A DNA stretch of 59,459 nucleotides from Pseudomonadota bacterium. Its GTDB lineage: Bacteria > Bdellovibrionota_G > JALEGL01 > DATDPG01. Below are positions 25,779-59,459 of the stretch, piece after piece (positions within the stretch are counted from its first letter, which is position 1; every line of letters begins with the position of its first letter). The position numbers and the translations under genes were made by a program. Below the pieces are notes generated by a model. That model searched no databases, was not told the origin of the DNA, and saw only the letters and a list, made by a program, of their open reading frames with translations. Location: contig JAZDDX010000001.1 of the NCBI GenBank assembly GCA_043809315.1, positions 1 through 59,459 of the forward strand, given 5' to 3'.

Positions 25779-26258
25779 ATGAAACGCACGACAAAGAGCC
25801 TGATCGAAGCCCTGATGGTCGCAATCGTTCTCTCTACTGGCGTCGCACAAGCGCAGGAAGAGCGGTCGATGCTGGCCAGACTCAAGACGATTGCGATGGA
25901 CGTCGAGTCGGCGACGGTCGATTCGATTACCGTTGAACCGACTCGGACCTTCGAACGCCCGTCCGATGAAGATGTCGCGTTTCAGACCGAGGTGAGGGAG
26001 AACGTCAGCAGTATTTACCGCTGTGTGGAACAGCGGCGGTCGATTGGTGCGGGTCGTGTGCGGGTTGCCTTCACGGTACTTTCTTCAGGTCACCTTTCGA
26101 ATGTTCACGTTGCCGTCCGTTTTCCCCAGACGGAGCCGGCGGTTGTTCGCTGCGTTCGCGACGCGCTCCATCGGAGCCGGATCGAAAACACCCAGGATCA
26201 GGAACGGCAGTTTCAATTCACGTTCGCCTTCGCGGGTGCAACGCAGGTTTCATTTTAA
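25779..26258 (+). CDS. Secreted protein with AgmX/PglI (TonB-C-like) C-terminal domain, copy 1
   Basis: Signal peptide AQA; ..YRC.E....GRV.V.FTV..SG....V..........C....... pattern; ~86% identical to 30842..31321. Confidence 0.7.
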   Translation: MKRTTKSLIEALMVAIVLSTGVAQAQEERSMLARLKTIAMDVESATVDSITVEPTRTFERPSDEDVAFQTEVRENVSSIYRCVEQRRSIGAGRVRVAFTVLSSGHLSNVHVAVRFPQTEPAVVRCVRDALHRSRIENTQDQERQFQFTFAFAGATQVSF

Positions 26259-26270
26259 TGCGGTAGTGAC
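26254..26270 (-). pseudogene. Degenerate scar of the 5S rRNA 3' end
   Basis: tttaatgcggtagtgac matches tttaatgcggcagcgac (5S 3' end and flank) at 15/17 positions; supplies the TAA stop of the upstream gene. Confidence 0.45.
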
Positions 26271-26467
26271 TATCTGGGGCTCTAGCCGGCAATCGATGTG
26301 CTCGATCTGTGCAATCAGCGGGAACGGGACTCGGGCTCCGATCGACGGGTGCTTGAAAACGATCTCCGCGAACAGGGTCACGGCTGGCAGAACGATTCCG
26401 AATGGTCTAACCGAGCCGCCGCAGGCATTGACGCCAAGCGTTAGTTGCGATACTTCTCACGGGACCG

Positions 26468-27739
26468 GTGAAGGCTTTGAGGCTAGCCCTTCTGTTTCTG
26501 GCCGGGATTCTCCTGGCCCAACCTTCGCATGCCCAGGACCGGCGCCCGTCGACTCTTCCGCGGATCGTCATCAACTGGATCGACAACCTGAGCATCGGGT
26601 CGATCAACACCGCGATCGGCGCGGGAAATCTTGTCGTCGCTTTCGTGGCTCAGCCGTTCACGGACGACGATGTACGAATCTCGTGCAACGGAGTTCAGAT
26701 CTGCGTCCGCACCTACGCCCTTCGTGCCACGGCGGCACACAGCTTGGGCCTGTTCAGCTTCGGGTCTTCCTCGCAAGACCACGAAGCGGGGCACTCGCTT
26801 CAGTCGGGGAGCTTGGGCCCCCTTTATCTTCCTACGGTCGGGTTCACCTACCTGGCCCACGGCCGGATCGGAGGATACTCGGTCGTCGAACATTGGGCCG
26901 AGTTGGAAGGGGACGCTCTGGCGGGGGCAAGGAAGCTCTACCAGACCACATCGCTCCCGCAGATCGGATTCGGAGAACTTCGCTCCGACGACGTTCACGT
27001 CCCGTATCTGATCCTGAAATTCACGTTGGATGACCGTCTGGATCAGGAGTACTCCGACTATCGTCTTCAAAAGACATATGAGTGGCTCAAGACCCAACTT
27101 CTGATCCCCGTGCGGGAGCACATCAAGACAAACGGACGGAAACTTCCGATGACGCTCGAAACAAACGTACTGACAAAAACCGTGAGGCTGGGGGCCGGCG
27201 ACGGCTGGCCGGATCACTGGGGGAATCAACCGCGGGTCGCGTTGGATACCGAGCAACAGTACGGGAGAGTTCGAAGCGACGGCTTGCTCGGCCTGACGCA
27301 CGTCAATGCACTCAGCTGGGCCGCCAAGCTCGGCTTCAACTACATCATGGGCAAGGGGGATACACAGATCACGGCTGTCGCGGGGGGCGGAATCAGTCTC
27401 GACCGCGTGACCCCCCATTCCGAGCGCGGCCTCTTCGACCGGGTCGAAAACCGGAACGGGATCGGGACGTCTCTGGCCGCATCGCTGGATTTCCGGCTCT
27501 TCGAGTACCTGACCGTTTACGGCACGATCGAACAGTACGGTCTTGCCGAAACCTTGAAGAGAAAACAGTCGTCGATCGGCCTCCACAACCGACTTCGCCC
27601 TTCATCGGCGGCCGTCCCGGCGATCCTCTCCCGCCTCGAATTCGACATCGAGCTTCTCCGGCAGCAGTACGAGGCCCCCCAGGCGGACCAGCGCCACACG
27701 CTCGATTGGATCCGAGCCTCGCTCGGCGTTCGGTTCTAG
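26468..27739 (+). CDS. Hypothetical exported protein, possibly outer-membrane beta-barrel
   Basis: Signal peptide (SHA), amphipathic beta-strand-like C-terminal region, terminal Phe. Confidence 0.6.
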   Translation: MKALRLALLFLAGILLAQPSHAQDRRPSTLPRIVINWIDNLSIGSINTAIGAGNLVVAFVAQPFTDDDVRISCNGVQICVRTYALRATAAHSLGLFSFGSSSQDHEAGHSLQSGSLGPLYLPTVGFTYLAHGRIGGYSVVEHWAELEGDALAGARKLYQTTSLPQIGFGELRSDDVHVPYLILKFTLDDRLDQEYSDYRLQKTYEWLKTQLLIPVREHIKTNGRKLPMTLETNVLTKTVRLGAGDGWPDHWGNQPRVALDTEQQYGRVRSDGLLGLTHVNALSWAAKLGFNYIMGKGDTQITAVAGGGISLDRVTPHSERGLFDRVENRNGIGTSLAASLDFRLFEYLTVYGTIEQYGLAETLKRKQSSIGLHNRLRPSSAAVPAILSRLEFDIELLRQQYEAPQADQRHTLDWIRASLGVRF

Positions 27740-27762
27740 TGCGGCAACGACCTACTCTCCCA
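27740..27762 (-). pseudogene. 23-nt remnant of the 5S rRNA 3' end
   Basis: tgcggcaacgacctactctccca is 22/23 identical to the 5S 3' end at 55813. Confidence 0.8.
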
Positions 27763-27787
27763 GACGTCTTTACGATAGGATCCGGGC

Positions 27788-28786
27788 GTGTCCGACTCTT
27801 TTTTCGAACTGACTCCGGATCTTGTATTGGCCGCGGTGGAGGCCTCCGGTCTCAGATGCAACGGGAGATGCATCCCTCTCAACAGCTACGAGAATCGTGT
27901 TTACGAGCTCGAACTCGAGGAGGATGAATCGGAAGACGGGGCAGCGAAGCACGTCATCTCGCGTCGGCGGGTGGTGAAGTTTTACCGGCCGGGCCGCTGG
28001 AGCCGGGACCAGATCTTGGAAGAGCACCAGTTCCTCCAGGACCTGTTGGAGGACGAGGTTCCCGTCGTGGCTCCGATCCGGTTTCCGAACGGAGAAACGC
28101 TTCATTCGGCCCAGGAGAGCGGCCTTTGGTACACCGTCTTTCCGAAGGTGGGGGGACGGATCCCGGATGAGATGGATGAGGATCAGCTTCAATGGCTGGG
28201 GCGCCTGCTCGGACGGATTCACAACGTCGGCGCTTCCCGGAAGGGGCTATATCGCCTCTCCCTGACACCCGCGACCTACGGTACTTCGAATCTCGAGTAT
28301 CTCCTGGCGAACAACTGGCTTCCCCCGAATCTCCGGGAGCGATATGCGTCCGCGGTCCGGGAGATCTGCCGCCTGGCGGAAGCCCCCTTTGCTTCCGTTG
28401 CGCCGATCCGGCTTCACGGGGATTGCCATCGCAACAATCTTCTGTGGGGGACCCAGGGGCCGTTCTTTCTCGATTTCGACGACATGGTGATCGGGCCTCC
28501 GGTCCAGGATCTGTGGCTCTTGGTGCCCGGTCGCGATTCGGAGGCGCGCTTGCACCTCGACTCCCTCATCCGTGGTTACGAAGAGTTCCGCACGTTCGAC
28601 CGCGCGAGCCTCAAGATGATCGAGATCCTGCGAGCCCTCCGCTTCGTTCACTTTTCCGCCTGGATGGCCCGGCGCTGGGAGGATCCCGCGTTTCCGCGCG
28701 CCTTTCCGTATTTCAACACGCCGAAGTACTGGGAGGATCAGACGCGCGATGTGATGGACCAGGCGGAACGGATTCAGACGGCCTGA
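27788..28786 (+). CDS. srkA: Stress response serine/threonine kinase SrkA (RdoA/YihE)
   Basis: LNSYENRVY, KFYRPGRWS..QILEEH, RLHGDCH..N, DFDD, GPPVQDLW, ARRWEDPAFP. Confidence 0.93.
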   Translation: MSDSFFELTPDLVLAAVEASGLRCNGRCIPLNSYENRVYELELEEDESEDGAAKHVISRRRVVKFYRPGRWSRDQILEEHQFLQDLLEDEVPVVAPIRFPNGETLHSAQESGLWYTVFPKVGGRIPDEMDEDQLQWLGRLLGRIHNVGASRKGLYRLSLTPATYGTSNLEYLLANNWLPPNLRERYASAVREICRLAEAPFASVAPIRLHGDCHRNNLLWGTQGPFFLDFDDMVIGPPVQDLWLLVPGRDSEARLHLDSLIRGYEEFRTFDRASLKMIEILRALRFVHFSAWMARRWEDPAFPRAFPYFNTPKYWEDQTRDVMDQAERIQTA

Positions 28787-28869
28787 CGGCAAAACTTGAA
28801 ACTTGTAGTTCAAGATCTACACTTCGATGAGTGTCAATCGATTTCTTTCAAGTCCATGGGGAGGGTCCA

Positions 28870-30479: not shown

Positions 30480-30737
30480 TTATTGGAGCAGGCTTAAGAC
30501 GGCATCGTACCAAATGGAGGCCATCTTACTGTGGTTCCTTCCGATCGCGTGATCGTGGCCGAAATGTACCCCTCGTGATTCCCATACGCTTGCGGGAAGG
30601 TGAACCCGAGGTTCCCGTTGGCATGATCTTCAGAGTCCCCGTCGGGGTGTTCACTCCGTGCGGGGTCGAGTCGAGCGTTGGGTTTGAGGTAGTGGTCTGC
30701 ACCTTCGAGGCGCCACATCCCGCCAGGAGGAGAAGAA
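30480..30737 (-). pseudogene. Collapsed remnant of a paralog of the 24320..25555 SGNH lipoprotein gene
   Basis: Colinear blocks similar to 24321-24368, 24734-24829, 24945-24977 and 25500-25528, joined by large deletions. Confidence 0.8.
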
Positions 30738-30813
30738 TGAATTCTGACTGTCAGCATGACAGAACTGACACCCAAAAGTCGCAATTTGTAGCGTAATAAC
30801 AAATACTTAGGTG

Positions 30814-30829
30814 TGGCACTGCCGTTGCT
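30814..30829 (+). promoter_or_regulatory. Sigma54 promoter
   Basis: TGGCACTGCCGTTGCT (GG-N10-GC); IHF-like TAACAAATACTTA just upstream. Confidence 0.75.
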
Positions 30830-30841
30830 CTACTAGAGCTC

Positions 30842-31321
30842 GTGAAACGCACGACAAAGCACCTGATCGAAGCCCTGATGATCGCAATCGTTCTCTCCGC
30901 CGGTGTGGCGCAGGCTCAAGAAGAGCGGTCGATGCTGGCTCGGCTCAAAACGATCTCGATGGATGTCGAGTCGGCGACGGTGGATCCAATCGCGGTTGAA
31001 TCGGCTCGGGTCTCCGAAGGTCGCTCGGAAGAAGATGCCGCGTTTCAAACCGAAGTGAGGGAGAACGTGAGCAGCGTTTACCGGTGTGCGGAACAGCGGC
31101 GATCGGTCGGCGCGGGGCGGGTACAGGTGGCCTTCACGGTCCTTTCCTCAGGTCACTTTTCAAACGTCCATGTCGCCGTCCGGTTTCCGCAGACGGAGCC
31201 GGCGGTCATTCGCTGCGTGCGCGATGCGCTTCATCGGAGCCGGATCGAGAACGCGCAGGATCAGGAACGGAAATTCCAGTTCACGTTCGCTTTCGCCGGC
31301 GCGACGCAGGTTTCGTTCTGA
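30842..31321 (+). CDS. Secreted protein with AgmX/PglI (TonB-C-like) C-terminal domain, copy 2
   Basis: 159 aa, 22 substitutions relative to 25779..26258. Confidence 0.7.
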   Translation: MKRTTKHLIEALMIAIVLSAGVAQAQEERSMLARLKTISMDVESATVDPIAVESARVSEGRSEEDAAFQTEVRENVSSVYRCAEQRRSVGAGRVQVAFTVLSSGHFSNVHVAVRFPQTEPAVIRCVRDALHRSRIENAQDQERKFQFTFAFAGATQVSF

Positions 31322-35689: not shown

Positions 35690-36859
35690 GTGGCGGGACG
35701 TTTCGTCCAGGATATCGCGGAGCTTACCAGACTCGGGGAGGCATGGAACACGCTTTGTCTCTCCCAGCCCCGCCCCACACCGATGCTGACTTGGGACTGG
35801 GCGGACGCCTGGTGGCGGGTCTACGGCGCCCCGAACCGGAATCTGTCCCTCTCGGTCTGGGTCTACGAAGAGAACGGGAAGGTTCTGGGGCTTTTCCCCC
35901 TCTACCGGATCGATACGGGTCATGGAGCTGTCTTCCGGCCGATCGGGACCGGGGAGAGGGAAGAGGATGCGGTTTGCAGCGATTACATCGCCCCGCTGTT
36001 CGCCGGATCCGACGAGGGAGTGAAGAACGCGCTGACGAGCGACCTTGCCGCCCTTTTGACAAGGGGGAGCGATACACTCCTTCTGTCCGATCTCGCGAGT
36101 GAGGATCCATGGAACGTTTCTCTTGCCGAGACATTACGGAGCCGACCACTTTCCGTCCGCCGCACCGGGGGATCGACCTGTGCGTATCTCCCTCTTCCGA
36201 AGACGTACGATGAGTTCTTTTCCTCGCTTTCTTCCAACTTCCGAACGCAACTTCGGCAGGGAGAACGATCGCTCAAAGCATTGGGAGGGGTCGAATTCCA
36301 CCGGATCGAACGGACCGAAGATATCGGCCCGTTCTGGGAGGACCTGGTTCGCCTGCACCAGAAACGCTGGAACGCGGTCGGCCGCCCTGGGGTTTTCTCG
36401 AGCCCCCTTTTCACCGAGTTTCACCGGGAGATCGTGGAAAGGTACACCCGGCGCGGCTGGCTGGATGGGTTGGTGTTGTACACGAACGGCCAACCGATGG
36501 CTGTGGTCTACTCCTACCGAATCGGAGGGACGATCTTTCTCTATCAGTCGGGACTCGAAACGGAGTTGCCTCCGAAAGTTCGCCCGGGCCTCCAGTTGCA
36601 CCTCGAGGTGATCCGTCAGGGGATCGTGCGGGGGGACCGCGAATACGACTTCATGCGGGGGGACGATCGGTACAAGAAGCAGTTTACGGAGTCGAGCCGG
36701 TCGCTGTTTCACGTTGAGGCGGGGAGACCGACACCGCGACGGACTCTGCGTTTCCTTTCGATTTCGGCCCGCGAACGGATCAAGGGAATACTTCCGGATT
36801 CGGTTCTTCGGTCGATCCGTACGGTCCGTCGTAGTCTCCGCTCTAGGTCCGATCCGTGA
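35690..36859 (+). CDS. GNAT family N-acetyltransferase (CelD/BcsL type)
   Basis: W..L......P..TWDW..WW, SDY, LS.NFR..LR, LH..RW, YQSG, RPG, YDFMRGDDRYK. Confidence 0.85.
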   Translation: MAGRFVQDIAELTRLGEAWNTLCLSQPRPTPMLTWDWADAWWRVYGAPNRNLSLSVWVYEENGKVLGLFPLYRIDTGHGAVFRPIGTGEREEDAVCSDYIAPLFAGSDEGVKNALTSDLAALLTRGSDTLLLSDLASEDPWNVSLAETLRSRPLSVRRTGGSTCAYLPLPKTYDEFFSSLSSNFRTQLRQGERSLKALGGVEFHRIERTEDIGPFWEDLVRLHQKRWNAVGRPGVFSSPLFTEFHREIVERYTRRGWLDGLVLYTNGQPMAVVYSYRIGGTIFLYQSGLETELPPKVRPGLQLHLEVIRQGIVRGDREYDFMRGDDRYKKQFTESSRSLFHVEAGRPTPRRTLRFLSISARERIKGILPDSVLRSIRTVRRSLRSRSDP

Positions 36860-48922: not shown

Positions 48923-48936
48923 CCTTGCTTAATGAA

Positions 48937-49024: not shown

Positions 49025-49048
49025 CATACGGCGCTGCGTATACGCCAA
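49017..49048 (+). repeat. 32-bp exact copy of 48073-48104 (yaiO-like start region)
   Basis: gggaacggcatacggcgctgcgtatacgccaa at both sites. Confidence 0.9.
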
Positions 49049-49222
49049 CGCGATTTCGCGGGTGACGGCGTCCAAATCCGCTTCCGTCTCCGGGAGGAAA
49101 GTTTTCGGCGCGGGGACCGAGTGGCGACGCATCAACTCGGCGAACTTCCATTTAACAAGGCAGGCTTCGATCAGATCGGCCGGAGCCATTTTGATCGCGA
49201 AATGGCGGGAGAGACGTTCCCG
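49047..49222 (+). repeat. 176-bp near-identical copy of 44118-44293 (internal part of ATP-grasp paralog 3)
   Basis: Direct repeat with 5 clustered mismatches. Confidence 0.9.
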
Positions 49223-49302: not shown

Positions 49303-51780
49303 TTAGATTTGTTTCATCCTGCGCTGGAGGAGCCCCAGCAAGGGGACCAGAATCCACCAAGGGCCGGAAGCCGCGCTGGACGGCACGGAGCACCCGCCGC
49401 TGGAAACCACCGCCTTCGGAGATGGAGTCGGAGTCGGGTCCTCCTGTACAACGAAGTTCCCCAAGGCGAATGTGATCCGGGCCTGCGCAAGAACCGAGAG
49501 GTTGTCGGAGGCGTCGACCGCTCTTGCTTCGATCAGGTTCTCGCCGGCGGAAAGTAGAACCGTCGCCGACCAGGAGGAGGTCCCGGAGGCGATCTGCCAG
49601 GCACCGCCGTTGACACGGACGGAGACCGATCGGAGCTCGCGGTTGTCGCTAGCGGAACCGGTCACGACGAGGGAGGAGCGGTCGGTCGTCGCCGGGACAG
49701 AGGCGATCGAGACGGTCGGAGCGACCGTGTCGGCTGGAGGAGGGGAAGCGCTTACCGTAAAGGAGGCGCTTACGTTGCTGGCCGAGCTGGCGGTTACCGT
49801 GCCCGAAATCTCGTGGTTCCCCGGCGAAGGAATCCACGGATTCGCCGCCGTTGTTTCTCCCCCCTGGAAGTCCCACGGCGTGTAGTTCTCGTCCCGAACG
49901 AAGCCTCCGTCGAGACGAAAGCTGACCTTGGTGATTCCGGTCACCGACGTCACGAACACATAGACCGCGCGGCCCGGCTCGAGGGTCGCACCCCCGAGCG
50001 GGATCGGGTTCGAGCGGTTGGCCGAAAGGGAGTAGACCAGTTCATAGCTCGCCGGGGAGCGCGTCACGTTCACCAACGGGATCGTCGATTTATTCCCGGC
50101 GGCGTCCGACGCCTGGGCTTCGATGGAGTTCGACCCCAACGCAACGGAGATGCTGGCCGACCAGGCGCTCGTTCCGTTCACATTCTGCCACGAGCCTCCG
50201 TTCACCCGGACCGCAACGAGGGTCACGCCGACGTTATCGGAAGCGGTTCCGGTGACCGAGATCGACGTGCCGGTGGTCGTCGCGTTGTTCGCCGGAGAGC
50301 CGATGGCGACGGTCGGGCTGGTGGTGTCGGGAGGAGGGGGATCGCTCGATCGGGTGACGTTGACCGTCCGGATCGTCGAAAGATTGTTCGACGTATCGAT
50401 TGCCTGAACGTCGATTGAATTCACGCCGACCGCGAGGGAAGCGGTGAACGACCAGCTCCCGGTGCCGGAGGCGTTCTGCCATGCGCTGCCGTTCACGCGA
50501 ACCTGGACCGAAGAGAGCGCCACGTTGTCGGAAGCCGTGCCGGACACCGCGATCGACGAGGCGTTCGTCGTCGTGTTGTTCGCGGGGGAATCGATCGTGA
50601 CCGAAGGGAGGGTGGTGTCGGGGGGGGGCGGATCCGCCTGGTACGCGGCGGCCGCGGCGTCCAACAGCGGGTGGGTGTACGGTTTTCCGCCCGCCTTGAT
50701 GGTGTCGTACCAGAGCTCCCAGATCATCACGCCGCCGAGGGTCTCCGTGCGTGTATAGTTCACCTTCGCCGCGATGCTCGCCTTGTCGTCGTACGTGATG
50801 AAATAATTGCTCGCGTTGTTTCCGATCCAGGGGACCTGTGCCTCGCTGTCCCAATTGGATACGGAGCCGCTCTCGTTCTTGAGGGCCAACGCCGCCTCGT
50901 ACTTCACGTCACTCCACGAAGAACAGATCCGGGTCTGCCCCGGCGCCGTGTTCCCGTTGCACCGGTGACCGTAAAACGGGAGCCCGATCCCGATCCTGCT
51001 GCGAAGGAGGCCTTTCGTGATCCAACCGTCCGGCCCTTTGAGATATCGGTAGTCGATGTCGTAGGCATCGTAGTTCGGATAAGTCGTCGGTTTCCGGATC
51101 GCCGAGTTGAACCCGATGTAGTCGAAATCTTTCTCCATGTCGTACGTCATCAGATTGACCTGATCGGCCGTCGCGTTCAGCGTCGGGACGTCGTACCCTT
51201 TCCGCGTGGCCCAAGTGGGGACCGCGATCGTCAGAATCCCTTTGGGATGGGTGGCGTCCTGCCAGGCATCCAGTCCGGCGCGAAGCTTCGTCATCAATCG
51301 AATGAAGTTCTGGAGATCGGCCGTATCGGGGACCTCCCAGTCGATGTCGACCCCGTCATACCCTTTGGATTTAGCGTAACTCAGGACGTTGTTCACGTAC
51401 GTCGTGGCCAGCCCGTCAGTCGAGGTGACGTACGTCATGTTGACGTCCCAGTCGCCGCCGACCCCTCCGAGACAGAGAAGCACTTTGACCCCGCCGGCGT
51501 GCGCGTAATTGAGAAGCTCAACTTGATCGCTTACGCCGCTTCCGTCGTTGTCCAGCTCCATGTCTTGGACGGTGTAGTACGGAGCGGTTTGGGTCGGCTC
51601 CGTCGTGAAGTGAACGATGTGAGTCATCTTGCTGAAATCGATATTTTTCGGAGGGACGTCCCAGACGCTGGAACGCATCCAGTAAGCGGTGATCCACCCA
51701 CCAAAGTTCCCGGCCGCCGATGCGGTTCCGGCCAAGAGCCCGATCCAACCGGCCAGAGAGAGGATCCAAAATCTCTTCAT
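49303..51780 (-). CDS. Glycoside hydrolase family 18 (chitinase-like) with Ig-like domains and MYXO-CTERM-like sorting tail
   Basis: Signal peptide; YDGVDIDWE (DxxDxDxE), LMTYD, GLPFYG, GGVMIWE; repeated PPPDTT.P Big domains; SGGCS..WWILVPLLGLL.RR tail. Confidence 0.92.
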   Translation of the reverse strand: MKRFWILSLAGWIGLLAGTASAAGNFGGWITAYWMRSSVWDVPPKNIDFSKMTHIVHFTTEPTQTAPYYTVQDMELDNDGSGVSDQVELLNYAHAGGVKVLLCLGGVGGDWDVNMTYVTSTDGLATTYVNNVLSYAKSKGYDGVDIDWEVPDTADLQNFIRLMTKLRAGLDAWQDATHPKGILTIAVPTWATRKGYDVPTLNATADQVNLMTYDMEKDFDYIGFNSAIRKPTTYPNYDAYDIDYRYLKGPDGWITKGLLRSRIGIGLPFYGHRCNGNTAPGQTRICSSWSDVKYEAALALKNESGSVSNWDSEAQVPWIGNNASNYFITYDDKASIAAKVNYTRTETLGGVMIWELWYDTIKAGGKPYTHPLLDAAAAAYQADPPPPDTTLPSVTIDSPANNTTTNASSIAVSGTASDNVALSSVQVRVNGSAWQNASGTGSWSFTASLAVGVNSIDVQAIDTSNNLSTIRTVNVTRSSDPPPPDTTSPTVAIGSPANNATTTGTSISVTGTASDNVGVTLVAVRVNGGSWQNVNGTSAWSASISVALGSNSIEAQASDAAGNKSTIPLVNVTRSPASYELVYSLSANRSNPIPLGGATLEPGRAVYVFVTSVTGITKVSFRLDGGFVRDENYTPWDFQGGETTAANPWIPSPGNHEISGTVTASSASNVSASFTVSASPPPADTVAPTVSIASVPATTDRSSLVVTGSASDNRELRSVSVRVNGGAWQIASGTSSWSATVLLSAGENLIEARAVDASDNLSVLAQARITFALGNFVVQEDPTPTPSPKAVVSSGGCSVPSSAASGPWWILVPLLGLLQRRMKQI

Positions 51781-51792
51781 GGACTATTCTTT

Positions 51793-51808
51793 AGCAAGAG
51801 TCGTTCCA
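51793..51808 (-). promoter_or_regulatory. Sigma54 promoter for the GH18 gene
   Basis: Minus strand TGGAACGACTCTTGCT (GG-N10-GC); IHF-like TGTCAAGTAGTTA upstream. Confidence 0.65.
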
Positions 51809-51999
51809 AGTCTTTCGACTTGAATGTCAAGTAGTTACAAAAGGGGTCCGCCTCCTAAGGTTTGAACTAATTGCGGGGCTTGCGAACCGATAGCATTCAA
51901 GCGAGAACGCCTCACCAACCACGCAAAAAGTAGCGGCAATCGACAGTCGACCGGTTCGAGCACCCATAGGCAAAACAGCTACTTAACCGCTCTTTTCGG

Positions 52000-52015
52000 T
52001 GGCACACCTTATGCT
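52000..52015 (+). promoter_or_regulatory. Sigma54 promoter
   Basis: TGGCACACCTTATGCT (GG-N10-GC), divergent from the GH18 promoter. Confidence 0.65.
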
Positions 52016-52050
52016 TCATTCTAGGGTAAGGAAGCCCGCCGCCGGGCTTT

Positions 52051-53796
52051 ATGAAGACCTTTGCCAGATCAGCACTGATACTCGCTCTGGGCCTATTCGG
52101 GCTTCTCGGTCTTTCCGGCTGTTGGGGAGGAACGGTCGAGATCTCCTCCCGGACTTCCACTTCGGTAAGTGAACCGACCGCGACTCCGGAGGTAACCTCC
52201 ACGCCGACACCGTCCGGTACCCCCTCGGAAACCCCGACGCCTTTAACCACCGTGACACAGACACCGACCCCATCGCCGACCCCCACGCGAACCGCGACGC
52301 CGACGCCGACTCCTACGCGAACCGCGACGCCGACGCCGACCCCCACGCGAACCGCGACGCCGACGCCGACTCCTACGCGAACCGCGACGCCGACGCCGAC
52401 CCCCACGCGAACCGCGACGCCGACGCCGACCCCCACGCGAACCGCGACACCGACGCCAACACCGACCGGAACAGTCACGGTCACACCGACCCCTACCTCC
52501 ACCCCTACGAGAACAGCGACGCCGACGGTAACGCCGACTGCCACTGCAACGGCAACGCCGACCTCCACCCCCAGCGAGACGCCCACTGAAATCTCGAGCT
52601 GGGCTTACGTGGATGGCGGGAACTCGTACGGCATCAACCATGATCGCTACCAGAACGGATTCTCTCCCCAGCTCGGCGTTTGTACCGATCCAATCTATCG
52701 CGGGCTTCATCCGATCTGGTCGGAGTTCAACCCCACTTCGGCCCAGATCCGCGCTTCGAAATATTTCGGCGCATCGGGGAACGAGTTTTTTTCGATCGAC
52801 GGGGACGGCACCAACGGTCTGAACGGAAATCCGGCCCATGGGGCTTCACATCCCCAGATCACGGAGTTCAACTCGCAGCTTTATGCGGCTTGGGAGGAGT
52901 ACACCCAAGGAGTCCAGTATGTAGTTCGGGTTGCGGGGTATATTCCCCCTCCCACACCGAGCTCTGTCCCTCCCCCCCCTCCACCAGACCCTGTCTGGAG
53001 ATTTGTGGACGGCCCGAATGGTCTGAATCGGGATCCAAACAAATATGCTTTCTTGCCTCAGCTCACCGTGTTCAACGCCAAACTCTATGCGGTCTGGGAG
53101 GAGAAGAACGGTTCTGACATTTTGGTGATTCGAGCCGCGCGCTACAACGGGAACTATTCCGCCCCGGTCTGGGTCGCCGTCGATGGCGCGAACGGTCTGA
53201 ACCGTGATCCTACCAAGCACGCGTCCTCCGCCCAACTCACTGTGCTGGGTACGAAGCTGTACGCGACCTGGGCTGAACATAATTCGTCCGGCGACTGGCA
53301 GGTCCGGGTCGCGGTTTACAACGGGAACGACGCCGCCCCCGCTTGGCCTTCAGTCGACGGAGGAGGGCTGGTCGGGATCAACAAAGCCCCCGCCGGCACC
53401 TTCCCGCAGCTCACCGCGCTCAACTCCAAGCTCTACGCGACCTGGTGGGAATACGGACCGGACATCCTGCCTCGCATCCGCATCGCGGTTTACAACGGGA
53501 ACGACGCCGCCCCGAATTGGAGCATCGTAGATGGAGGGGCCTATTCGGGAAACAACCCGCAGCTCACCGTATTCAACTCGAAGCTCTACCGGTCGTGGGA
53601 CAACGGAGGTCTCGTTCGGATCTCAGTCTACAACGGAAACGATACTGCCCCGATCTGGACCTCGGTCGATAGCGGCGGCCTTTTTGGATATGATGCCCAA
53701 CTCGCTGTCTACCGATCCGAACTTTATGTGACATGGGTCGGCTCCGGCGGCGGCTACTTCGCGGGTAATCAGGTCCGTGTGGCGGTGGGGCGGTAG
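52051..53796 (+). CDS. Lipoprotein with long Pro/Thr linker and ~60-aa repeats (putative beta-propeller)
   Basis: Lipobox LSGC; ([10 protein letters not shown])n; repeats of VDG...PQLT.FN.KLYA.W.E...[12 protein letters not shown]. Confidence 0.8.
52271..52460 (+). repeat. 30-bp coding tandem repeat (~6 units)
   Basis: accgcgacgccgacgccgacYccYacgcga repeated; encodes [10 protein letters not shown]. Confidence 0.9.
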
Positions 53797-54041
53797 GTAC
53801 CCAGCAAGGAAACGCCCGACCATTTTTTACCCCATCTTTAAAGGTCGTGTCAGGCCTACCTAATCTTATGACTCAAACTGTTCAGTCGAAGGGGCGCACT
53901 TCAGGTTGTTTCCATTGTAATTGAAGTCTGATACATCCGATGAATTAGTTGGGGAGCTGCGTTGTACGCGGCTGAGAGGCCCGAGCGGATCGGGCGACCC
54001 TAGAACTTGATCCAGATAATGCTGGCGAAAGGAAATCGTCC

Positions 54042-55043
54042 GTGCGTCGTTTTATTTCTCTTGTTCTGGCAACAGCAATCATCTTCACCCCGCTCCGCCT
54101 GGAAAATTTAAGAGAAGCCAAAGCCTCAGCGGACGGGGGAGTTTTGGAAGGAGGGGCCGTTGTTGTGGTCACAGCTCTGGCCTTCACAGCCTTCTATGTG
54201 GCTATCGTTAAGCTTTGTCAGACCGGAAGTGTTCAAGAGGGGGTTCGGGCCGGGGTTCATTCGTTCGAGGAGGGGGTTGAGGATGCGGCCGGCTTCGTTC
54301 GGGAGACGATCGACGATTTCAAAATTGCGCTCTACCTTAGACTCTCCGAACTTGCGGTATCCCAAAAAGAGGTTTGTCCCGATGTGGGTTCGGAGGTCAC
54401 AGGACTTGGATGGGTGCAGGCCGGGCTTTTCGGTCTCTATCTGGAATATGGTCTAATCTCCCCGCAGGGGATGCCGCTTGATTCCGACTTGCTTGCCAGG
54501 CGTGTTGCGGAACTCGGACGGGATCGAAGGTTTCTCGAAGCTTTTTCCCGAATTGCCATACCGTTAGGTCAAGCCGTATCGGAAACGCTTTCAGTTTCGC
54601 GCGGCTTTGTTCAGGAGTCCTGGAGAAGAATCCGGCGCTGCATGGAGTCCAATCCGGACAGCGCTCCCATCTTCCTCCATTCGGGTCCCGGGCATGGATT
54701 GCAGGCCGTCATTTCCGGGGTCACATTCTTGATCGCCTCGGGACGCTCCTTGAAATCCTTTCTTGAGGGGCATCCCAATCGAGACGATCTCAAAGCTGCC
54801 CTTGCATTCGGTGTGATCTTCACCGTAACAGGAACGGCTTCGCACTTCGCTTGGAAGTTCCATCTACGCCATTGTCTGGAGGGGGAGCGGACGAGATGGG
54901 AAAGCCTTGGGGAGATCCGGATGTTGGCAGGAATCTACGGATTGACCGGTCTTCTGGTCCTGCAGCCCTATCTGACCTGGCTTCATGTCCGACAGGCGTA
55001 TCAATACATTGCTCAGCCCGACGCCACCCGAACGGAACGCTGA
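54042..55043 (+). CDS. Hypothetical membrane protein
   Basis: Signal-like N-terminus and several hydrophobic helices; no recognised domain. Confidence 0.6.
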   Translation: MRRFISLVLATAIIFTPLRLENLREAKASADGGVLEGGAVVVVTALAFTAFYVAIVKLCQTGSVQEGVRAGVHSFEEGVEDAAGFVRETIDDFKIALYLRLSELAVSQKEVCPDVGSEVTGLGWVQAGLFGLYLEYGLISPQGMPLDSDLLARRVAELGRDRRFLEAFSRIAIPLGQAVSETLSVSRGFVQESWRRIRRCMESNPDSAPIFLHSGPGHGLQAVISGVTFLIASGRSLKSFLEGHPNRDDLKAALAFGVIFTVTGTASHFAWKFHLRHCLEGERTRWESLGEIRMLAGIYGLTGLLVLQPYLTWLHVRQAYQYIAQPDATRTER

Positions 55044-55085
55044 TTCTTGAAGCCGAATGGCACATGCTCCCTTCGCGTTGAAATG

Positions 55086-55119
55086 AAAAAACTCCGCCCG
55101 ATTTTTCGAGCGGGGTTTC
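55086..55119 (-). terminator. Rho-independent terminator (variant rrn terminator)
   Basis: aaactccgcccga-tttt-tcgagcggggttt hairpin next to the 5S fragment. Confidence 0.7.
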
Positions 55120-55126
55120 TATTTAA

Positions 55127-55218
55127 TGCGGCAGCGACCTACTCTCCCACTAAGCTTCCCGTGCAGTACCATCGGCTCCGATGGGCTTAACGGCCGTGTT
55201 CGGGATGGGAAGCGGTGT
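55127..55218 (-). pseudogene. 5'-truncated 5S rRNA copy (variant allele)
   Basis: Matches the 3' ~85-92 nt of 5S with 4 substitutions up to 55211; lacks the 5' strands of helices I and II. Confidence 0.9.
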
Positions 55219-55227
55219 TCGGGGCGG

Positions 55228-55716
55228 TCACGATGGATATTTCAGTACCTTGACTTCGGCGCCGAAACCATCCTTTCCTGGAATCGATACCTTCTGCCCG
55301 CTCACCGGCTCCACGCGGATCGATCCAAGCTTGAAGCTCTGAGTGTTTTTCTTGCCCTGACAGAGAACCGTGTCATAGAGCGTGAAGAGCAACTGGCGGT
55401 CCAGCAATTCCGTCTCAGGGATCGAAAGATGCGGGTCGGCGACCTCGGTGAAAAGCTGCACCCACGTATTGTTCCGCATCCGGACCTCGTCGAACAAGCG
55501 CACGTCGCTCACTTCGCACTCCGAACGGTTGGGATTCTTTCTTTTCTCACACACATCAACAGTGACGACGAGATTGTTCAGCCGCAGGTCGCTCGCCTTG
55601 CAGTCGCTGAGAGTGCCAGCCTTGACGCTTCGCAGGTAGATTCGCCACTCGTCGGCACGGGCCTGTTGGGCCGCGAGGACGGACAGTAACAGGGCAGGGA
55701 AGACAATTTTTTTCAT
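55228..55716 (-). CDS. Hypothetical secreted protein
   Basis: AGGAG RBS, MKKIVFPALLLSVLAAQQARA signal peptide; sits alone between two 5S copies. Confidence 0.75.
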   Translation of the reverse strand: MKKIVFPALLLSVLAAQQARADEWRIYLRSVKAGTLSDCKASDLRLNNLVVTVDVCEKRKNPNRSECEVSDVRLFDEVRMRNNTWVQLFTEVADPHLSIPETELLDRQLLFTLYDTVLCQGKKNTQSFKLGSIRVEPVSGQKVSIPGKDGFGAEVKVLKYPS

Positions 55717-55764: not shown

Positions 55765-55805
55765 GAAATGAAAACGCCCGATCCGTTTCCAGATCGGGCG
55801 TTTCT
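55765..55805 (-). terminator. rrn Rho-independent terminator
   Basis: aaacgcccgatc-N8-gatcgggcgttt perfect 12-bp stem directly 3' of 5S. Confidence 0.85.
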
Positions 55806-55812
55806 AATTTAA

Positions 55813-55928
55813 TGCGGCAGCGACCTACTCTCCCACTAAGCTTCCCTAGCAGTACCATCGGCTCCGAAGTGCTTAACGGCCGTGTTCGGGATGGGAACGG
55901 GTGTGACCACTCCGATATAGCCACCGCA
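55813..55928 (-). rRNA. rrf: 5S ribosomal RNA (complete sequence, detached from a full operon)
   Basis: UGCGGUGGC...CCCAUCCCGAAC...GAUGGUACU...GGGAGAGUAGG...GCUGCCGCA; helices I, II and IV pair. Confidence 0.95.
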
Positions 55929-55976
55929 AGTCGTTTTCAATTGCATACGATTCTCTTTGGATGTCCTGTCAATTCA

Positions 55977-56122
55977 ATGACCAAGCCTCACGGGCAATTA
56001 GTACCGGTAAGCTCCACGCCTTACAGCGCTTCCACGCCCGGCCTATCAACGTTGTAGTCTCCAACAGCCCTTTAGGGGATTGCTCCCAGGGAAACCTAAT
56101 CTCGAGGGTTGTTTCCCGCTTA
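55977..56122 (-). rRNA. rrl: 23S rRNA 3'-terminal fragment (~145 nt only)
   Basis: UAAGCGGGAAAC...GUUGAUAGGCCGGG...GUACUAAUUGCCCGUGAGGCUUG; rRNA similarity stops abruptly at 56122. Confidence 0.9.
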
Positions 56123-56123
56123 T

Positions 56124-56213: not shown

Positions 56214-56392
56214 AGGAAAGGAGAGGCAACGTGGAAGATTTGAAGGACGGCTTTAAGTGGGGAGCGCCACTTGAAGCTACGTAGTAACCTTTCCGCAACA
56301 GAACGCACATTTTTTCCTGGCTATCGAAAAAGTTTTCATAGTTCTCTTCCGTTCGTTAACCTCCAACCTCCTAATATTGCAGGCTTGTTCGA

Positions 56393-56408
56393 TGGCACGG
56401 TGCGTGCA
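56393..56408 (+). promoter_or_regulatory. Sigma54 promoter
   Basis: TGGCACGGTGCGTGCA (GG-N10-GC) upstream of the ATG at 56434. Confidence 0.65.
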
Positions 56409-56433
56409 ATTATTCACCGCAAGACCCGTTCTT

Positions 56434-58506
56434 ATGACCTTCCGACCGATATTCGCGGCCTCCATCGTCCTCGCGGGAGGGGTGTTCTGGCTCGGAGGTT
56501 GCGGCAATACGATCGATCTCCCCCCCTCACGGGATTCCGATTTTTACTCGATCGTGGAATCATTCAACGAAGGCGCGGTGATTTTCCTGCAGAACATTTC
56601 GAGCACCACGACCGCCACCTCCGTTTCGCCCACCGAAATCGTCATCCGCTGGACCTCCGTTCGAGGCGCCGGCTTCTATTCGGTCGAACGAAGCGGTGCG
56701 CCCGATGGCGGCTTCTCGGAAATCCGGAGAGTTGCGGGAAACACGACCATGTATTCGGATAGGAGCCTCACGCCGGCGACCACGTTCTTCTATCGTGTGC
56801 GGGCGGGCCGGACTTTCAGTAACGGGACGATCCGATACACGCCGTACTCGAATATCGTCTCCGCCACGACGGGGCCCGTGAATCCACCGACGCCGACCGC
56901 AACCCCAGGTGCAACCGCGACCGCCACACCGACGCCGACCGCGACCCCGGGTGTCACCGCGACACCCCGCGCGACCGCCACACCGACGCCGACGCCTACG
57001 GCCATCGCCAGTTCCGTCCATTTTTATATTGATGCAACTTTGGGTAATGACGCGAATGACGGGAAATCTCCAAGTGCGGCGTGGAAGACATTGGTCAAGA
57101 TCCAAAGCTGGAATACGGGAAATGCTTGGAGCTCCATAAAACCAGGAGATTCAATATTACTTAAAAGAGGCGAGAGGTGGGCCCCCAGCGGCGTTCCCGG
57201 TTCTTATGGAGCGATTGAGATTCCGATTGGCAAGGCGGGCGCGCCCGACGCCTATATCACGTTGGGATCATACGGCAATTCGGCCTTGCCCCTGCCGATC
57301 ATCAGCATGCTGAATTCTCCCATGGAGAAAGCATTAGCCATGAGAAGCGCATCGTACTTCATAATTCGAGATATCGAATTTAGAGGACAGATCTATTTGA
57401 GATCAAGATACGACCCGGGCATCCATCACATCAAGTTCCTGAATATCACGGTGGACGGCGCTGAAGGCGCAGAAGAAACACATCTTGTAACTACGTGGGA
57501 CGCAACGGAGGTTTCGGCAGAAAACTGGGATTTTTATGACACGCATGACATTGAGATCGGGTATTCCACGTTCAAGAACACAAATTATGGTGCCTCCATT
57601 CACTTTGTGGTCACGACAGGCAACGCATGGATCCACCACAATAAAATACTTGATCCTGTAGGCGATCCCAGTGCCTCGAACACGAGAGGAACCTGCCTGG
57701 ACTTTGCGGAAGGCAATAACCTTCTCATCGAGTACAATATTTGCAGCAACCCGAACGGCAACGGTTTCAAGTTGCAGCCGCAAAGATATACCTTGGACAA
57801 CATTACTGTAAGGGGAAACTTGATAACGAATGTGCAAGATATTCCCCTAATAATCTACAACACACGCAACAGTTCGATTTATCACAACACCATTGTTCCT
57901 CGTTCGTCATCGGCATTCTATGCATTCTATATGGGGTGGTTAACGGGAACTACAGACAGCACGCCCACGATATACTTTTCTGGGAAAGGTCAGTGGGGTT
58001 TTCAAGATTCGAAAATTCAAAACAATATTTTTGGCGGCGTGGTCTGGATCGGTACCCCGAATGGCGTAAACATCACATATAAGGATGGAACGTATGTTCC
58101 CAGCTATACTCACAGTTTGAACAGCATCAAGACAAAGAATTATTTCCAGAATAATTTATATTTCAGTCAACTCACGACAACCAGAATTAGAGAAGGGTAC
58201 TACACCTCAAACACGACAATAAAATGGGATCCAAACGCATCTCCACCGGGTTATGCAATAATTTCTGATTCGATTACTAAAACGATCGCGTCCGCTTTCG
58301 ACTTCAATACCGCATGGCTTGGAACAAGTCCGACGATAACTGGAGAGAAGACGGCAGATCCATTGTTTGTCAACCCTTCCGCGGGAAATTACCATCTTCA
58401 GACGGGCAGTCCGGCCATTAATTCTGGGATCAGTATTCCGGAATGGACCGTCGATTTGGACGGCAACCCTGTAATAGGAACTCCCACGATAGGAGCGTAC
58501 CAATAG
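56434..58506 (+). CDS. Lipoprotein: fibronectin type III domain + Pro/Thr linker + right-handed parallel beta-helix (pectin-lyase-like) domain
   Basis: Lipobox LGGC; W....Y.VER....YSDRSLTP.T..YRVRA FN3 pattern; FYID...GNDANDGKSP.AWKTL, PGDSILLKRG, C-terminal DPLFVN....YHLQ.GSPAINSG..DLDG...IGAY. Confidence 0.85.
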   Translation: MTFRPIFAASIVLAGGVFWLGGCGNTIDLPPSRDSDFYSIVESFNEGAVIFLQNISSTTTATSVSPTEIVIRWTSVRGAGFYSVERSGAPDGGFSEIRRVAGNTTMYSDRSLTPATTFFYRVRAGRTFSNGTIRYTPYSNIVSATTGPVNPPTPTATPGATATATPTPTATPGVTATPRATATPTPTPTAIASSVHFYIDATLGNDANDGKSPSAAWKTLVKIQSWNTGNAWSSIKPGDSILLKRGERWAPSGVPGSYGAIEIPIGKAGAPDAYITLGSYGNSALPLPIISMLNSPMEKALAMRSASYFIIRDIEFRGQIYLRSRYDPGIHHIKFLNITVDGAEGAEETHLVTTWDATEVSAENWDFYDTHDIEIGYSTFKNTNYGASIHFVVTTGNAWIHHNKILDPVGDPSASNTRGTCLDFAEGNNLLIEYNICSNPNGNGFKLQPQRYTLDNITVRGNLITNVQDIPLIIYNTRNSSIYHNTIVPRSSSAFYAFYMGWLTGTTDSTPTIYFSGKGQWGFQDSKIQNNIFGGVVWIGTPNGVNITYKDGTYVPSYTHSLNSIKTKNYFQNNLYFSQLTTTRIREGYYTSNTTIKWDPNASPPGYAIISDSITKTIASAFDFNTAWLGTSPTITGEKTADPLFVNPSAGNYHLQTGSPAINSGISIPEWTVDLDGNPVIGTPTIGAYQ

Positions 58507-58604
58507 ATTTTTTCGGGAGGTGACCTTCTCCCAACTTGTATGGTGAGCGTCTCGCACCCGCTTTCGCGGGTACCCGCTCGACGCTGTCGTTGTACTACCT
58601 GCAA

Positions 58605-58629
58605 GTTCGGGACGGGTGTGACCACTCCG
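58605..58629 (-). pseudogene. Internal 5S rRNA remnant inside a structured intergenic region
   Basis: gttcggga-cgggtgtgaccactccg equals 5S gttcggga[tgggaa]cgggtgtgaccactccg with a 6-nt deletion. Confidence 0.65.
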
Positions 58630-58724
58630 GTTGGATTTACCCGGCAAGGGGGGGAACGGAAAACCATGGTTCCGACTGCCTAGAAACGCACAGCCTAAAC
58701 CCCTGAAATCTTGTGAAAAAATGT

Positions 58725-58740
58725 TGGCACGGTTTCTGCT
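58725..58740 (+). promoter_or_regulatory. Sigma54 promoter
   Basis: TGGCACGGTTTCTGCT (GG-N10-GC). Confidence 0.7.
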
Positions 58741-58764
58741 CATTTAATGGGCTGGAGACTCAAA

Positions 58765-59316
58765 ATGAAAAATTCACGGCTTATTCCGGTTCTGCTCGTT
58801 TTCGGGTTCATCGGCTGCGGAGGATCGAATGTGGATCTTGCCGCTGATAAGCAGGGCGTGAACGAATCTCTTGGCGCGAACACCGCCTGTCTCCCTAATT
58901 CTGCGGCCGCCCTCACGGCTTGTTCTCCAGGCAGAGTCCTGCCCGTTATGCCGACCGCGACGCCGACACCCTCGCCAACGCCGACTCCGGGTGTGCCGAG
59001 TGCGCCACGGAATATCCGGATTGAAGAACAGACAAAGCTGAGTCCGGGGATGGGTGTCTATGCCTGTATCCAGTATGTCGCATGGGATCCTCCCGCCTCC
59101 GATCCGACAGGTGCCGGCATTTCTTATGAATTCTGCGTGACGACAACGCTCACCAAGAAAACGTGTTCCTGGTTGCCGGACTCTGTCCGGCGGTTAAAAG
59201 TTGCCGTAGGAAATTCTCCGCCAACGTACCCCTTCGTTTCTGCCGCGGTATCTGTGACTAGTTATCGAAACAGCGTTCAAGGGAATTCCAGTACGATCGA
59301 TTTCTCCTGTCCTTGA
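58765..59316 (+). CDS. Lipoprotein with Pro/Thr linker and FN3-like C-terminal domain
   Basis: GGAGA RBS, MKNSRLIPVLLVFGFIGC lipobox, [20 protein letters not shown]...WDPP...Y pattern. Confidence 0.7.
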   Translation: MKNSRLIPVLLVFGFIGCGGSNVDLAADKQGVNESLGANTACLPNSAAALTACSPGRVLPVMPTATPTPSPTPTPGVPSAPRNIRIEEQTKLSPGMGVYACIQYVAWDPPASDPTGAGISYEFCVTTTLTKKTCSWLPDSVRRLKVAVGNSPPTYPFVSAAVSVTSYRNSVQGNSSTIDFSCP

Positions 59317-59341
59317 TGGATTGCGACGTCGAAGAGGATTG

Positions 59342-59378
59342 AAAAAAACGCCCGACCAGTTGCCTGATCGGGCGTCTT
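59342..59378 (-). terminator. rrn Rho-independent terminator (probably bidirectional)
   Basis: acgcccga..cag-ttgc-ctg..tcgggcgt hairpin with an A7 tract, directly 3' of 5S. Confidence 0.85.
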
Positions 59379-59384
59379 ATTTAA

Positions 59385-59459
59385 TGCGGCAGCGACCTAC
59401 TCTCCCACTAAGCTTCCCTAGCAGTACCATCGGCTCCGAAGTGCTTAACGGCCGTGTTC
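59385..59459 (-). rRNA. rrf: 5S ribosomal RNA, cut by the window end (possibly the functional operon copy)
   Basis: 75 nt identical to the 3' part of the 5S at 55813. Confidence 0.9.

Follow-up and report, generated by a model that had tools for sequence, protein, structure and literature searches.

Truncated copies of a ribosomal RNA operon end alternate with accessory genes in an island that may have grown without an integrase

We analyzed a 59,459-nt stretch of DNA, called the window throughout, that comprises the entire contig JAZDDX010000001.1 (assembly GCA_043809315.1), and found that pieces of the 3′ end of the ribosomal RNA (rrn) operon recur along it in a single orientation with accessory genes between them. 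The repetition of these operon tails is real and lies far beyond chance. We put at roughly one half the probability that the window contains a flexible accessory island that starts directly behind the 5S rRNA end and has grown by several duplicative, integrase-independent insertions. The operon behind which the island starts is probably the only rrn operon of the organism. A preliminary description, made from the sequence alone, had reported the repeated tails and had read them as an integron-like capture platform with a chronological order; its observation is largely confirmed and its interpretation partly supported. More tentatively, and with the odds against it, the rrn 3′ end could act throughout this bacterial family as a recombinase-independent capture site, the row of tails being a roughly ordered record of acquisition.

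The window belongs to a draft genome (G000) of 2.42 Mb in 44 contigs, with a marker-gene completeness of 96%, from a GTDB phylum represented by only 17 species genomes. All rRNA in the window lies on the minus strand, which we call the rrn sense, with transcription running toward falling coordinates, and the contig stops within a 5S gene at position 59459. A search of all 44 contigs detected no 16S gene, and no 23S or 5S gene beyond the window. ARAGORN predicted neither a tRNA nor a tmRNA on the contig; the repeated gene is the 5S/23S. We located rRNA pieces with cmscan and Rfam covariance models and with BLASTN searches of a 501-nt rrn 3′ end against the 44 contigs, and we judged short pieces both by their score against 300 shuffles and by a genome-wide E value.

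Five of the eight pieces listed in the preliminary description are solid, namely R1 with its terminator, R2, R3, R4, and R5 (Table 1). R1 is presumed to be the end of the real rrn operon. R5 aligns with the 5S in 22 of 23 positions over 27740–27762 by BLASTN (genome-wide E 2e-4; none of 300 shuffles reaches its score), the next ≈20 nt resemble terminator C, and the piece overlaps the final codons of the 423-aa open reading frame (ORF) of cassette 5; judged by its alignment, it is a genuine 5S remnant. A sixth piece, described earlier as a degenerate 5S at about 58520–58630, stands in part. Its segment 58612–58632 is probably real (0 of 300 shuffles reach its score, E 0.013; BLASTN 18/18 over 58612–58629), but it corresponds to a 5′ part of the 5S rather than to its 3′ end, and cmscan does not call the stretch even at E ≤ 10. 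R6 is borderline as a 5S remnant from its sequence match, since none of 300 shuffles reaches its score, yet its genome-wide E is 0.36 and an unrelated match on contig C20 scores higher. The supposed terminator arm at 53810–53822 does no better than chance: 4 of 300 shuffles reach its score.

Every accepted piece lies on the rrn strand, as had been claimed, and all are confined to the 33 kb nearest the operon. Off this contig, short-word BLASTN returned only seven rrn-tail matches, 15 to 17 nt long with E values of 0.06 to 0.94, in keeping with the expectation that the fragments would be restricted to this locus. The 5′ starts of the tails fall within the 23S (R2, 358 nt) and at about nt 26–32 (R3), 29 (R4), and 92 (R5) of the 5S. 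The 23S-bearing piece and the short remnants therefore differ in their cut points, as the preliminary description had it, but only a few nucleotides separate the starts of the two ≈90-nt pieces. No single fixed 3′ segment stands at every border; R3 and R4 alone are alike in this respect.

Table 1. Operon-tail pieces, cassettes, and other features of the window (bits are cmscan scores; percentages with lengths are BLASTN identities).
Feature	Position	Strand	Evidence and remarks
R1, 5S 3′ part, model positions 42–120, cut by contig end	59384–59459	−	37.6 bits, relaxed threshold; with terminator A, 59345–59459, 94% of 117
Terminator A, G+C-rich hairpin and T-run behind R1	59345–59383	−	read from sequence
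Cassette 1a, 189-aa lipoprotein-like ORF with Pro/Thr linker	58747–59316	+	ORF and translation
Degenerate 5S-like stretch	58540–58632	−	solid part only 58612–58632 (5S nt 15–35, 20/21)
Cassette 1b, 709-aa secreted right-handed beta-helix protein	56377–58506	+	Pfam Beta_helix, weak
R2, 23S tail (last ≈130 nt), spacer, complete 5S, terminator B	55765–56122 (358 nt)	−	5S 55812–55928, 98.9 bits; 23S tail 55990–56089, 70.8 bits, model 2815–2912; terminator B 55765–55811, terminator-like site 55804–55771; start of 23S homology (56122) set by alignment with relatives
Cassette 2, 162-aa secreted protein	55228–55716	−	signal-peptide-like N terminus
R3, 5S from nt ≈26–32 to end (55126–55217), terminator C	55086–55217	−	38.6 bits (match 55126–55250); 55121–55211, 95.6% of 91; terminator-like site 55113–55094
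Cassette 3	49303–55085	both	thiamine pyrophosphate (TPP) riboswitch, 333-aa ORF, 581-aa protein, GH18 gene
TPP riboswitch	53940–54050	+	57.3 bits; directly upstream of 333-aa ORF
333-aa membrane ORF	54042–55043	+	hydrophobic segments; no Pfam, NCBIfam, or PHROG match
581-aa repeat protein	52051–53796	+	cassette 3
GH18 chitinase-like gene	49303–51780	−	cassette 3
Mosaic filler upstream of R4	49025–49222	−	repeat families D8 (97%) and D18 (95%), BLASTN, three-way alignment
R4, 5S from nt ≈29 to end (48936–49024), 3′ half of terminator	48906–49024	−	44.5 bits (match 48936–49052); 48935–49024, 94.4% of 90
Cassette 4, ≈21 kb, mainly surface-polysaccharide genes	27788–48905		Pfam, NCBIfam, paralogy
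R5, last 26 nt of 5S (from nt ≈92), 24/26	27737–27762	−	repeat family D11
Cassette 5, 423-aa ORF, no family match	26468–27739	+	Pfam, NCBIfam, PHROG
R6 (doubtful), last 12 nt of 5S and spacer start, 21/25	26246–26270	−	
Segmental duplication, left copy: GDSL-lipase 3′ part and 159-aa TonB_C-like gene	24725–26251		right copy 30521–31314

The junction at R4 records how one of these tails was joined. Read in the rrn sense, 176 nt from 44118–44293 lead into 28 nt from 48081–48108, which lead into the 5S from about nt 29. The longer patch is 97% identical to an internal stretch of an ATP-grasp gene lying 4.9 kb off, and the shorter is 96% identical to the interior of the gene at 48081–48108, 0.9 kb away. 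A three-way alignment places microhomology at both joints, TT between the two patches and CCGTTCCC (8–9 nt) between the 28-nt patch and the 5S, the latter being the type of short G+C-rich microhomology at which the illegitimate joint of homology-facilitated illegitimate recombination (HFIR) forms. As the alignment reads, the R4 junction bears the marks of microhomology-guided illegitimate joining or template switching, and not those of a site-specific recombinase. Both patches were copied from DNA downstream of R4, so the junction arose when cassette 4 already lay behind the operon. The R2 and R3 junctions carry no information on microhomology. The 23S tail of R2 begins at 56122, and its analogue in the related genome G003 begins ≈27–30 nt further upstream, a difference that speaks for independent events and for the absence of a fixed crossover.

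A second line of evidence comes from the contrast between 5S sequences and the terminators beside them. We compared the last 74–75 nt of the 5S with the next 45 nt; the terminator identities come from optimized alignments and are upper bounds. R1 and R2 agree at 74 of 74 5S positions and at 36 of 45 terminator positions (Fisher p 9e-5), and R3 and R4 agree at 74 of the last 75 5S positions and at 24 of 38 in the terminator (Fisher p 4e-7). Across the two pairs 69–71 of 74–75 positions are identical, which defines two 5S alleles. A like contrast appears in the relatives, with 74/75 against 29/45 in G001 and 38/40 against 27/45 in G003. Such a pattern is not what a recent in-place duplication with subsequent neutral decay would leave. 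Replacement of the operon end from related donors would fit it, because the 5S, unlike the terminator, is conserved from donor to donor.

The same conservation could instead mean that truncated 5S units with their terminators were kept because they are useful, as terminators, 3′ stabilizers, or small RNAs with helix IV–V, and were spread by conversion. The 5S parts are 93–100% identical while their flanks diverge, R2 and R3 have strong terminator-like hairpins, and the cassette 2 ORF stops ≈10 nt ahead of R3, which would then form its 3′ end. We nevertheless regard selection for such units as very unlikely, given that R4 has lost half of its terminator, that R5 and R6 are short stubs, that most neighboring genes lie on the opposite strand, that the 23S tail of R2 goes unexplained, and that no RNA run contains the stretch. 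Two further ideas on the origin of the 5S copies were rejected. The 5S genes of the sampled relatives are no closer to R3 and R4 than the host's own, which speaks against a foreign source for this pair. Retro-copying would combine a constant 3′ end at the terminator with variable 5′ truncation; the terminators differ, and the sole reverse-transcriptase gene lies on another contig.

The composition of the cassettes bears on where the DNA between the tails came from. Cassettes 1a and 1b, nearest the operon, have GC contents of 0.54 and 0.51, against a mean of 0.597 (sd 0.024) in 2-kb windows of the genome, and their tetranucleotide deviation is equaled or exceeded in 1% (1a) and 0% (1b) of 150 background windows. 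Neither has a second copy in the genome. Cassette 3a, at a GC content of 0.545, is no outlier, and the outer cassettes look native. That the compositional outliers stand nearest the operon weakly supports the proposal that the youngest insertions lie next to it. Taken with the conserved 5S and dissimilar terminators, the foreign composition of 1a and 1b fits an import of the rrn-downstream DNA of a relative by way of a crossover in the rRNA.

We favor insertion from outside by way of the operon end, although the donor origin of the DNA, the rRNA crossover, and the succession of events are all inferred. General recombination, rather than a locally encoded site-specific recombinase, would make each insertion. 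One crossover would fall in the highly conserved rRNA. Its partner could be DNA of a related strain, bearing that strain's rrn end together with the genes downstream of it, or else a segment of this kind in circular form. Illegitimate joining guided by microhomology, or template switching, would close the other end. The new block would land between the operon and the 5′-truncated old tail, which consists of the 23S end, 5S, and terminator or less; with each block entering next to the operon, older tails would come to lie further out. Three candidate routes could give this layout of operon, new terminator, cargo, and truncated old tail, and they are indistinguishable here: a linear donor acting across sister chromosomes, a circular intermediate with a single crossover, or break-induced replication with template switching.

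Internal rearrangement would account for the scars with no import at all, breaks at the heavily transcribed rrn end having led through template switching or break-induced replication to a field of junctions. Both R4 patches derive from resident DNA 0.9 and 4.9 kb off at 96–97% identity, other local duplications are found nearby (a lipase/TonB_C-like pair and three ATP-grasp paralogues), cassettes 2 to 5 are native-like, and repeat units at the operon of the relative G004, described below, are limited to its rrn locus. We think this explanation unlikely, in view of the single-copy outliers 1a and 1b, of terminators that are too different beside near-identical 5S sequences for recent duplication in place, and of the R3/R4 allele, which differs from that of R1/R2.

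Searches for recombination genes gave nothing on the contig to which the insertions could be ascribed. The 50 ORF translations that cover the contig contain no integrase, transposase, resolvase, or reverse-transcriptase Pfam domain, and a six-frame search of the genome placed every match to PF00589 (10), PF00239 (1), and PF00078 (1) off this contig and found none to PF01609; the PF00589 search detects integrase fragments down to 41 residues. Within the reach of these searches, the earlier statement that integrases, transposases, and reverse transcriptases are lacking is borne out. The integron-like label does not hold, in that no intI-type integrase was found beside the array on the contig and no fixed recombination site was seen. 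The cassette genes are accessory and are located on both strands, an arrangement unfit for a single common promoter. The Ku domain was found in 0 of 4 family genomes, which makes capture by nonhomologous end joining unlikely, and we dropped this route. As regards DNA uptake by natural transformation, the ComEC domain occurs in all four family genomes, but it is weak evidence, being found in 10 of 14 control genomes as well.

The tails might alternatively be the remains of site-specific islands, that is, of tandem elements of the tyrosine or serine recombinase type with an attachment (att) site in the 5S (in one case in the 23S end) whose recombinase was later lost. This is the established route by which 3′ fragments of a target gene come to lie in one orientation with cargo in between. 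It would suit the nearly identical 5′ ends and shared allele of R3 and R4, the incomplete 5S copies in G001 and in G003, which start at the same place and share an A-to-C difference, and a 0.8-kb cassette of G004 that lies between ≈97-nt direct repeats; some phage records also carry partial 5S-like stretches, for which an att-site role is only a candidate. Yet no integrase or integrase fragment was found on the window's contig, on contigs C11 and C21 of G003, on contig C126 of G001, or near the G004 rrn operon. The tails vary in length between ≈25 and 358 nt, the position of the 23S junction is not the same from genus to genus, R4 was joined through a patchwork with microhomology, and the degenerate 24-nt pattern of the 5S end matches no viral contig. 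We accordingly give decayed islands of this kind little credence, no more than we give to internal rearrangement.

The relatives show that the window's structure is not isolated. When 41 genomes were scanned with the 5S covariance model at E ≤ 0.01, additional partial 5S matches turned up only in the window's family (two in the window's own genome, one each in G001 and G003); of the 5S-bearing genomes from outside the family, 0 of 27 had a partial match. Extra copies of the 5S end lie by the rrn genes in 4 of 4 family genomes with a 5S, the window's included; G002 is without an assembled 5S. In G001, a partial 5S (from about nt 45) sits 170 nt behind the full 5S, with a nucleotidyltransferase (NTase)-like gene nearby. 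A small contig of G003 carries, in order, a 5S 3′ end with terminator, a HigB/HigA-like pair, and a 23S tail with 5S, and on another contig of the same genome a partial 5S comes after a TumE-type pair.

G004, assembled as a single contig, has one canonical 16S-tRNA-tRNA-23S-5S operon. It is accompanied by two tandem 209-nt units with several hairpins (locus L024, 6514–7905), each of which opens with the last 27 nt of the 5S; these copies of the 5S end were missed by the covariance model and recovered by BLAST. Behind the units lies the 0.8-kb cassette, comprising a 75-aa ORF and a 164-aa NTase-like ORF (PF10706/DUF6036), and the ≈97-nt direct repeats that flank it hold a variant of the 27 nt. 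We considered and discarded the idea that the 209-nt unit is a miniature inverted-repeat transposable element, as it occurs at the rrn locus only and nowhere else in the genome.

Independent analogues of the window thus occur in three further genera of the family. G001, G003, and G004 each carry their own, different tail duplications, and the cassettes between or beside the copies differ among them (toxin-antitoxin-like, NTase-like). No window gene gave a tblastn match at E ≤ 1e-5 against 80 kb around the G004 operon (≈73 kb of it downstream); at E ≤ 1e-3 the G004 stretch gave one match, to 47 residues of a glycosyltransferase. The G004 homologue of a methylmalonyl-CoA mutase lies 300 kb from the operon, and synteny at the family level is nil.

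As background we collected 74 metagenome loci that match a degenerate 24-nt pattern of the 5S end, 69 of them with at least 500 nt downstream and 315 kb in total. Several 5S 3′ ends occur at 1 of the 74 (L075, three within 460 nt), a rough comparison given that the downstream stretches are far shorter than the window. Other odd loci are L053, with a 5′-truncated 5S, L056, with an isolated 25-nt 5S end in the middle of a contig, and L046, in which 5S halves (nt 1–43 and 44–117) are split by ≈91 nt. These loci and L060 come from distant organisms, mostly at 30–40% protein identity, and serve as background only. The exact 34-nt 5S end matched 0 metagenome contigs, and the degenerate 24-nt pattern 0 viral contigs. 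Whole or partial 5S-like sequences are present in phage records H3 and H6–H8 (Paenibacillus phage Pd_22F, three Listeria phages, and Bacteroides LoVEphage).

Known systems resemble the window in some respects and depart from it in others. In the tycheposons of Prochlorococcus, newer insertions sit by the intact tRNA gene, older ones are pushed outward, and remnants lie further in (bioRxiv 10.1101/2020.12.28.424599), and another island is preceded by repeats of the last 20 nt of tRNA-Lys (PMC10872708). The window is like such tRNA-gene element arrays, an "additive" form of flexible genomic island, in having co-oriented 3′ fragments of a stable RNA between blocks of cargo. It differs in that tycheposon elements have integrases and fixed ≈40-nt att repeats, whereas here neither a recombinase nor a remnant of one was found and the fragments measure ≈25–358 nt. 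Its target is the 23S/5S end, with one microhomology patchwork junction, and not the tRNA or tmRNA gene that is the target of the tycheposon type.

HFIR combines one homologous anchor with an illegitimate joint at the other end (PMC2884548), and the microhomology joint at R4 is of this kind. HFIR further implies a foreign insert that was linked to the anchor in its donor; what bears on this in the window is the outlier composition of 1a and 1b and a terminator A unlike terminator B beside an identical 5S, and no donor was found. HFIR is defined from laboratory work and usually replaces or deletes DNA of the recipient; in the window, by contrast, the anchor is duplicated, which would call for template switching or for the involvement of a circular intermediate or a sister chromosome. 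In Streptococcus pneumoniae, merodiploids arise when a short donor fragment and a repeat on the sister chromatid yield a duplication with a new junction, and the repeats said to mediate duplication include rRNA sequences (PMC3784515). Such a route could lead from anchoring in rrn to a duplicated tail, but the S. pneumoniae duplications span 100–900 kb, are unstable, form between existing long repeats, and add no foreign genes.

Hypervariable region 2 (HVR2) of SAR11 is a surface-gene island at the 23S/5S genes, which its describers took as sites of homologous recombination (PMC2217521, PMC3448164). Like HVR2, the window island adjoins rRNA genes and is rich in polysaccharide genes (cassette 4). 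HVR2, however, lies between the 23S and 5S and is exchanged whole between two anchors, an island of the replacement type, and the portions of those reports that we drew on mention no trail of truncated rRNA tails. A 2026 preprint makes the case that the HVR2 anchors are tRNA genes rather than rRNA genes (10.64898/2026.04.03.716430). Our searches of the wider literature turned up no report of truncated rrn tails strung out behind an operon in bacteria; the tycheposon and SAR11 supplements may list rRNA-associated cases. Searches on truncated, partial, or pseudogene 5S in bacteria gave no relevant bacterial paper among the matches listed, and searches on the 5S rRNA as an island integration site or on rRNA-operon hotspots gave nothing specific.

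Several observations weigh against growth of the island by successive captures. No donor was found, either for the 34-nt 5S end in metagenome contigs or among relatives for the cassettes, and no genome of the same species turned up. Cassettes 2 to 5 are native-like in composition. R3 and R4 are identical at 74 of 75 positions and start within a few nucleotides of each other, which makes copying, conversion, or a fixed site an easier source than two independent illegitimate joints. A conserved 5S next to a diverged terminator could also result from gene conversion confined to the 5S, although conversion leaves unexplained why R3, only 0.6 kb from R2, retains the other allele. In G004, the junction between the so-called U element and the last 27 nt of the 5S is present three times, and one junction in three copies means that this array expanded by homologous or unequal recombination rather than by fresh captures. 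R5 and R6 may likewise have come together and not singly, since they lie within a 5-kb segment bracketed by a duplication. The most decayed 5S piece (58540–58632) sits between R1 and R2, the youngest-looking copies, and this contradicts a simple age gradient. HFIR experiments mostly give an insertion with a deletion instead of duplicating the anchor.

Of the earlier interpretation, one part stands halfway and another has only weak support. Anchoring in rrn followed by illegitimate joining agrees with the R4 patchwork and the 5S/terminator contrast and sits poorly with the near-copies R3 and R4 and the homologous expansion in G004. A chronological order gains a little from the foreign composition nearest the operon and loses by the decayed piece between R1 and R2 and by the copied look of R3 and R4.

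The contig comes from a draft metagenome-type assembly, and we did not obtain a read or contig that bridges any junction: reads of two public runs (X1 with 0.14 of sampled words) gave low-depth contigs of 200–335 nt at ≥99% identity, none of which spans one. The tails might therefore be suspected of being mis-joins at conserved rRNA words, in a 44-contig draft that lacks a 16S and a full 23S, on a contig that ends inside a 5S and whose R1 and R2 share an exact ≈80-nt stretch. We consider an assembly artifact the least probable of the explanations, by a wide distance from likely. On its 5′ side each truncated copy borders non-rRNA sequence, and each carries a separate terminator, so every junction must be present in actual DNA molecules, and a mis-join within a shared word would yield a whole hybrid 5S instead of a truncated one. 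Moreover, the single-contig genome G004 shows a similar structure, and outside 1a and 1b the composition of the contig matches the genome.

If capture behind the operon is what happened, the DNA of relatives would have been anchored by the near-invariant 23S/5S and closed by microhomology, each event adding a cassette and displacing a tail. Many variable islands have no recognizable mobile-element genes, and the way in which such islands acquire genes has yet to be explained; the physical junctions in a trail of tail copies make the mechanism readable. Confirmation would mean that genes can be added across species boundaries, with no integrase involved, by means of an essential, ultra-conserved RNA gene as the universal anchor of homology. 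On the practical side, standard rRNA annotation calls such fragments odd partial 5S genes or misses them, and the fragments break assemblies.

That accessory genes separate the tail pieces, as first described, was upheld by Pfam and NCBIfam annotation and by homologue searches in relatives. The cassette 1a ORF belongs to no Pfam, NCBIfam, or PHROG family, and the beta-helix protein of cassette 1b has paralogues, in its own genome and in G001, for the N-terminal domain only. The cassette 2 protein has no Pfam, NCBIfam, or PHROG match, and this query found no homologue in 16 relatives. Cassette 4 encodes a flippase, glycosyltransferases of families GT2 and GT4, an acetyltransferase, three ATP-grasp paralogues, and an AMP-binding protein, together with HEAT-repeat proteins, YaiO-like barrel proteins, an APH-like kinase, and genes without assignment.

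The duplication around R5 and R6 is made up of repeat families D6, D15, D16, and D19 at 75–85% nucleotide identity, and its TonB_C-like proteins are 85.5% identical. The duplicated pair is divergent (24320–26258 and 30494–31321, 5 kb apart), and the GDSL lipase, which has a Big_7 domain, is truncated in the second copy. The two copies bracket R6, cassette 5, R5, and two further genes.

A few further features were noted in passing. The ATP-grasp paralogues at 36843–38045, 42159–43364, and 43373–44566 share 45–52% amino acid identity within the polysaccharide cluster, and a 687-aa ORF at 42159–44222 overlaps the third of them in another frame and is probably no real gene as listed. The 333-aa ORF behind the TPP riboswitch is a candidate for an undescribed thiamine-related transporter. 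On contig C16 (357–797) of the window's genome, a 640-aa open frame at the contig start has a Resolvase domain and is of the large serine-recombinase type. Pro/Thr-rich linker repeats with periods of 12, 18, and 30 nt occur at 52175–52606, 56869–57009, 330–444, and 25222–25445, in several secreted proteins of the contig.

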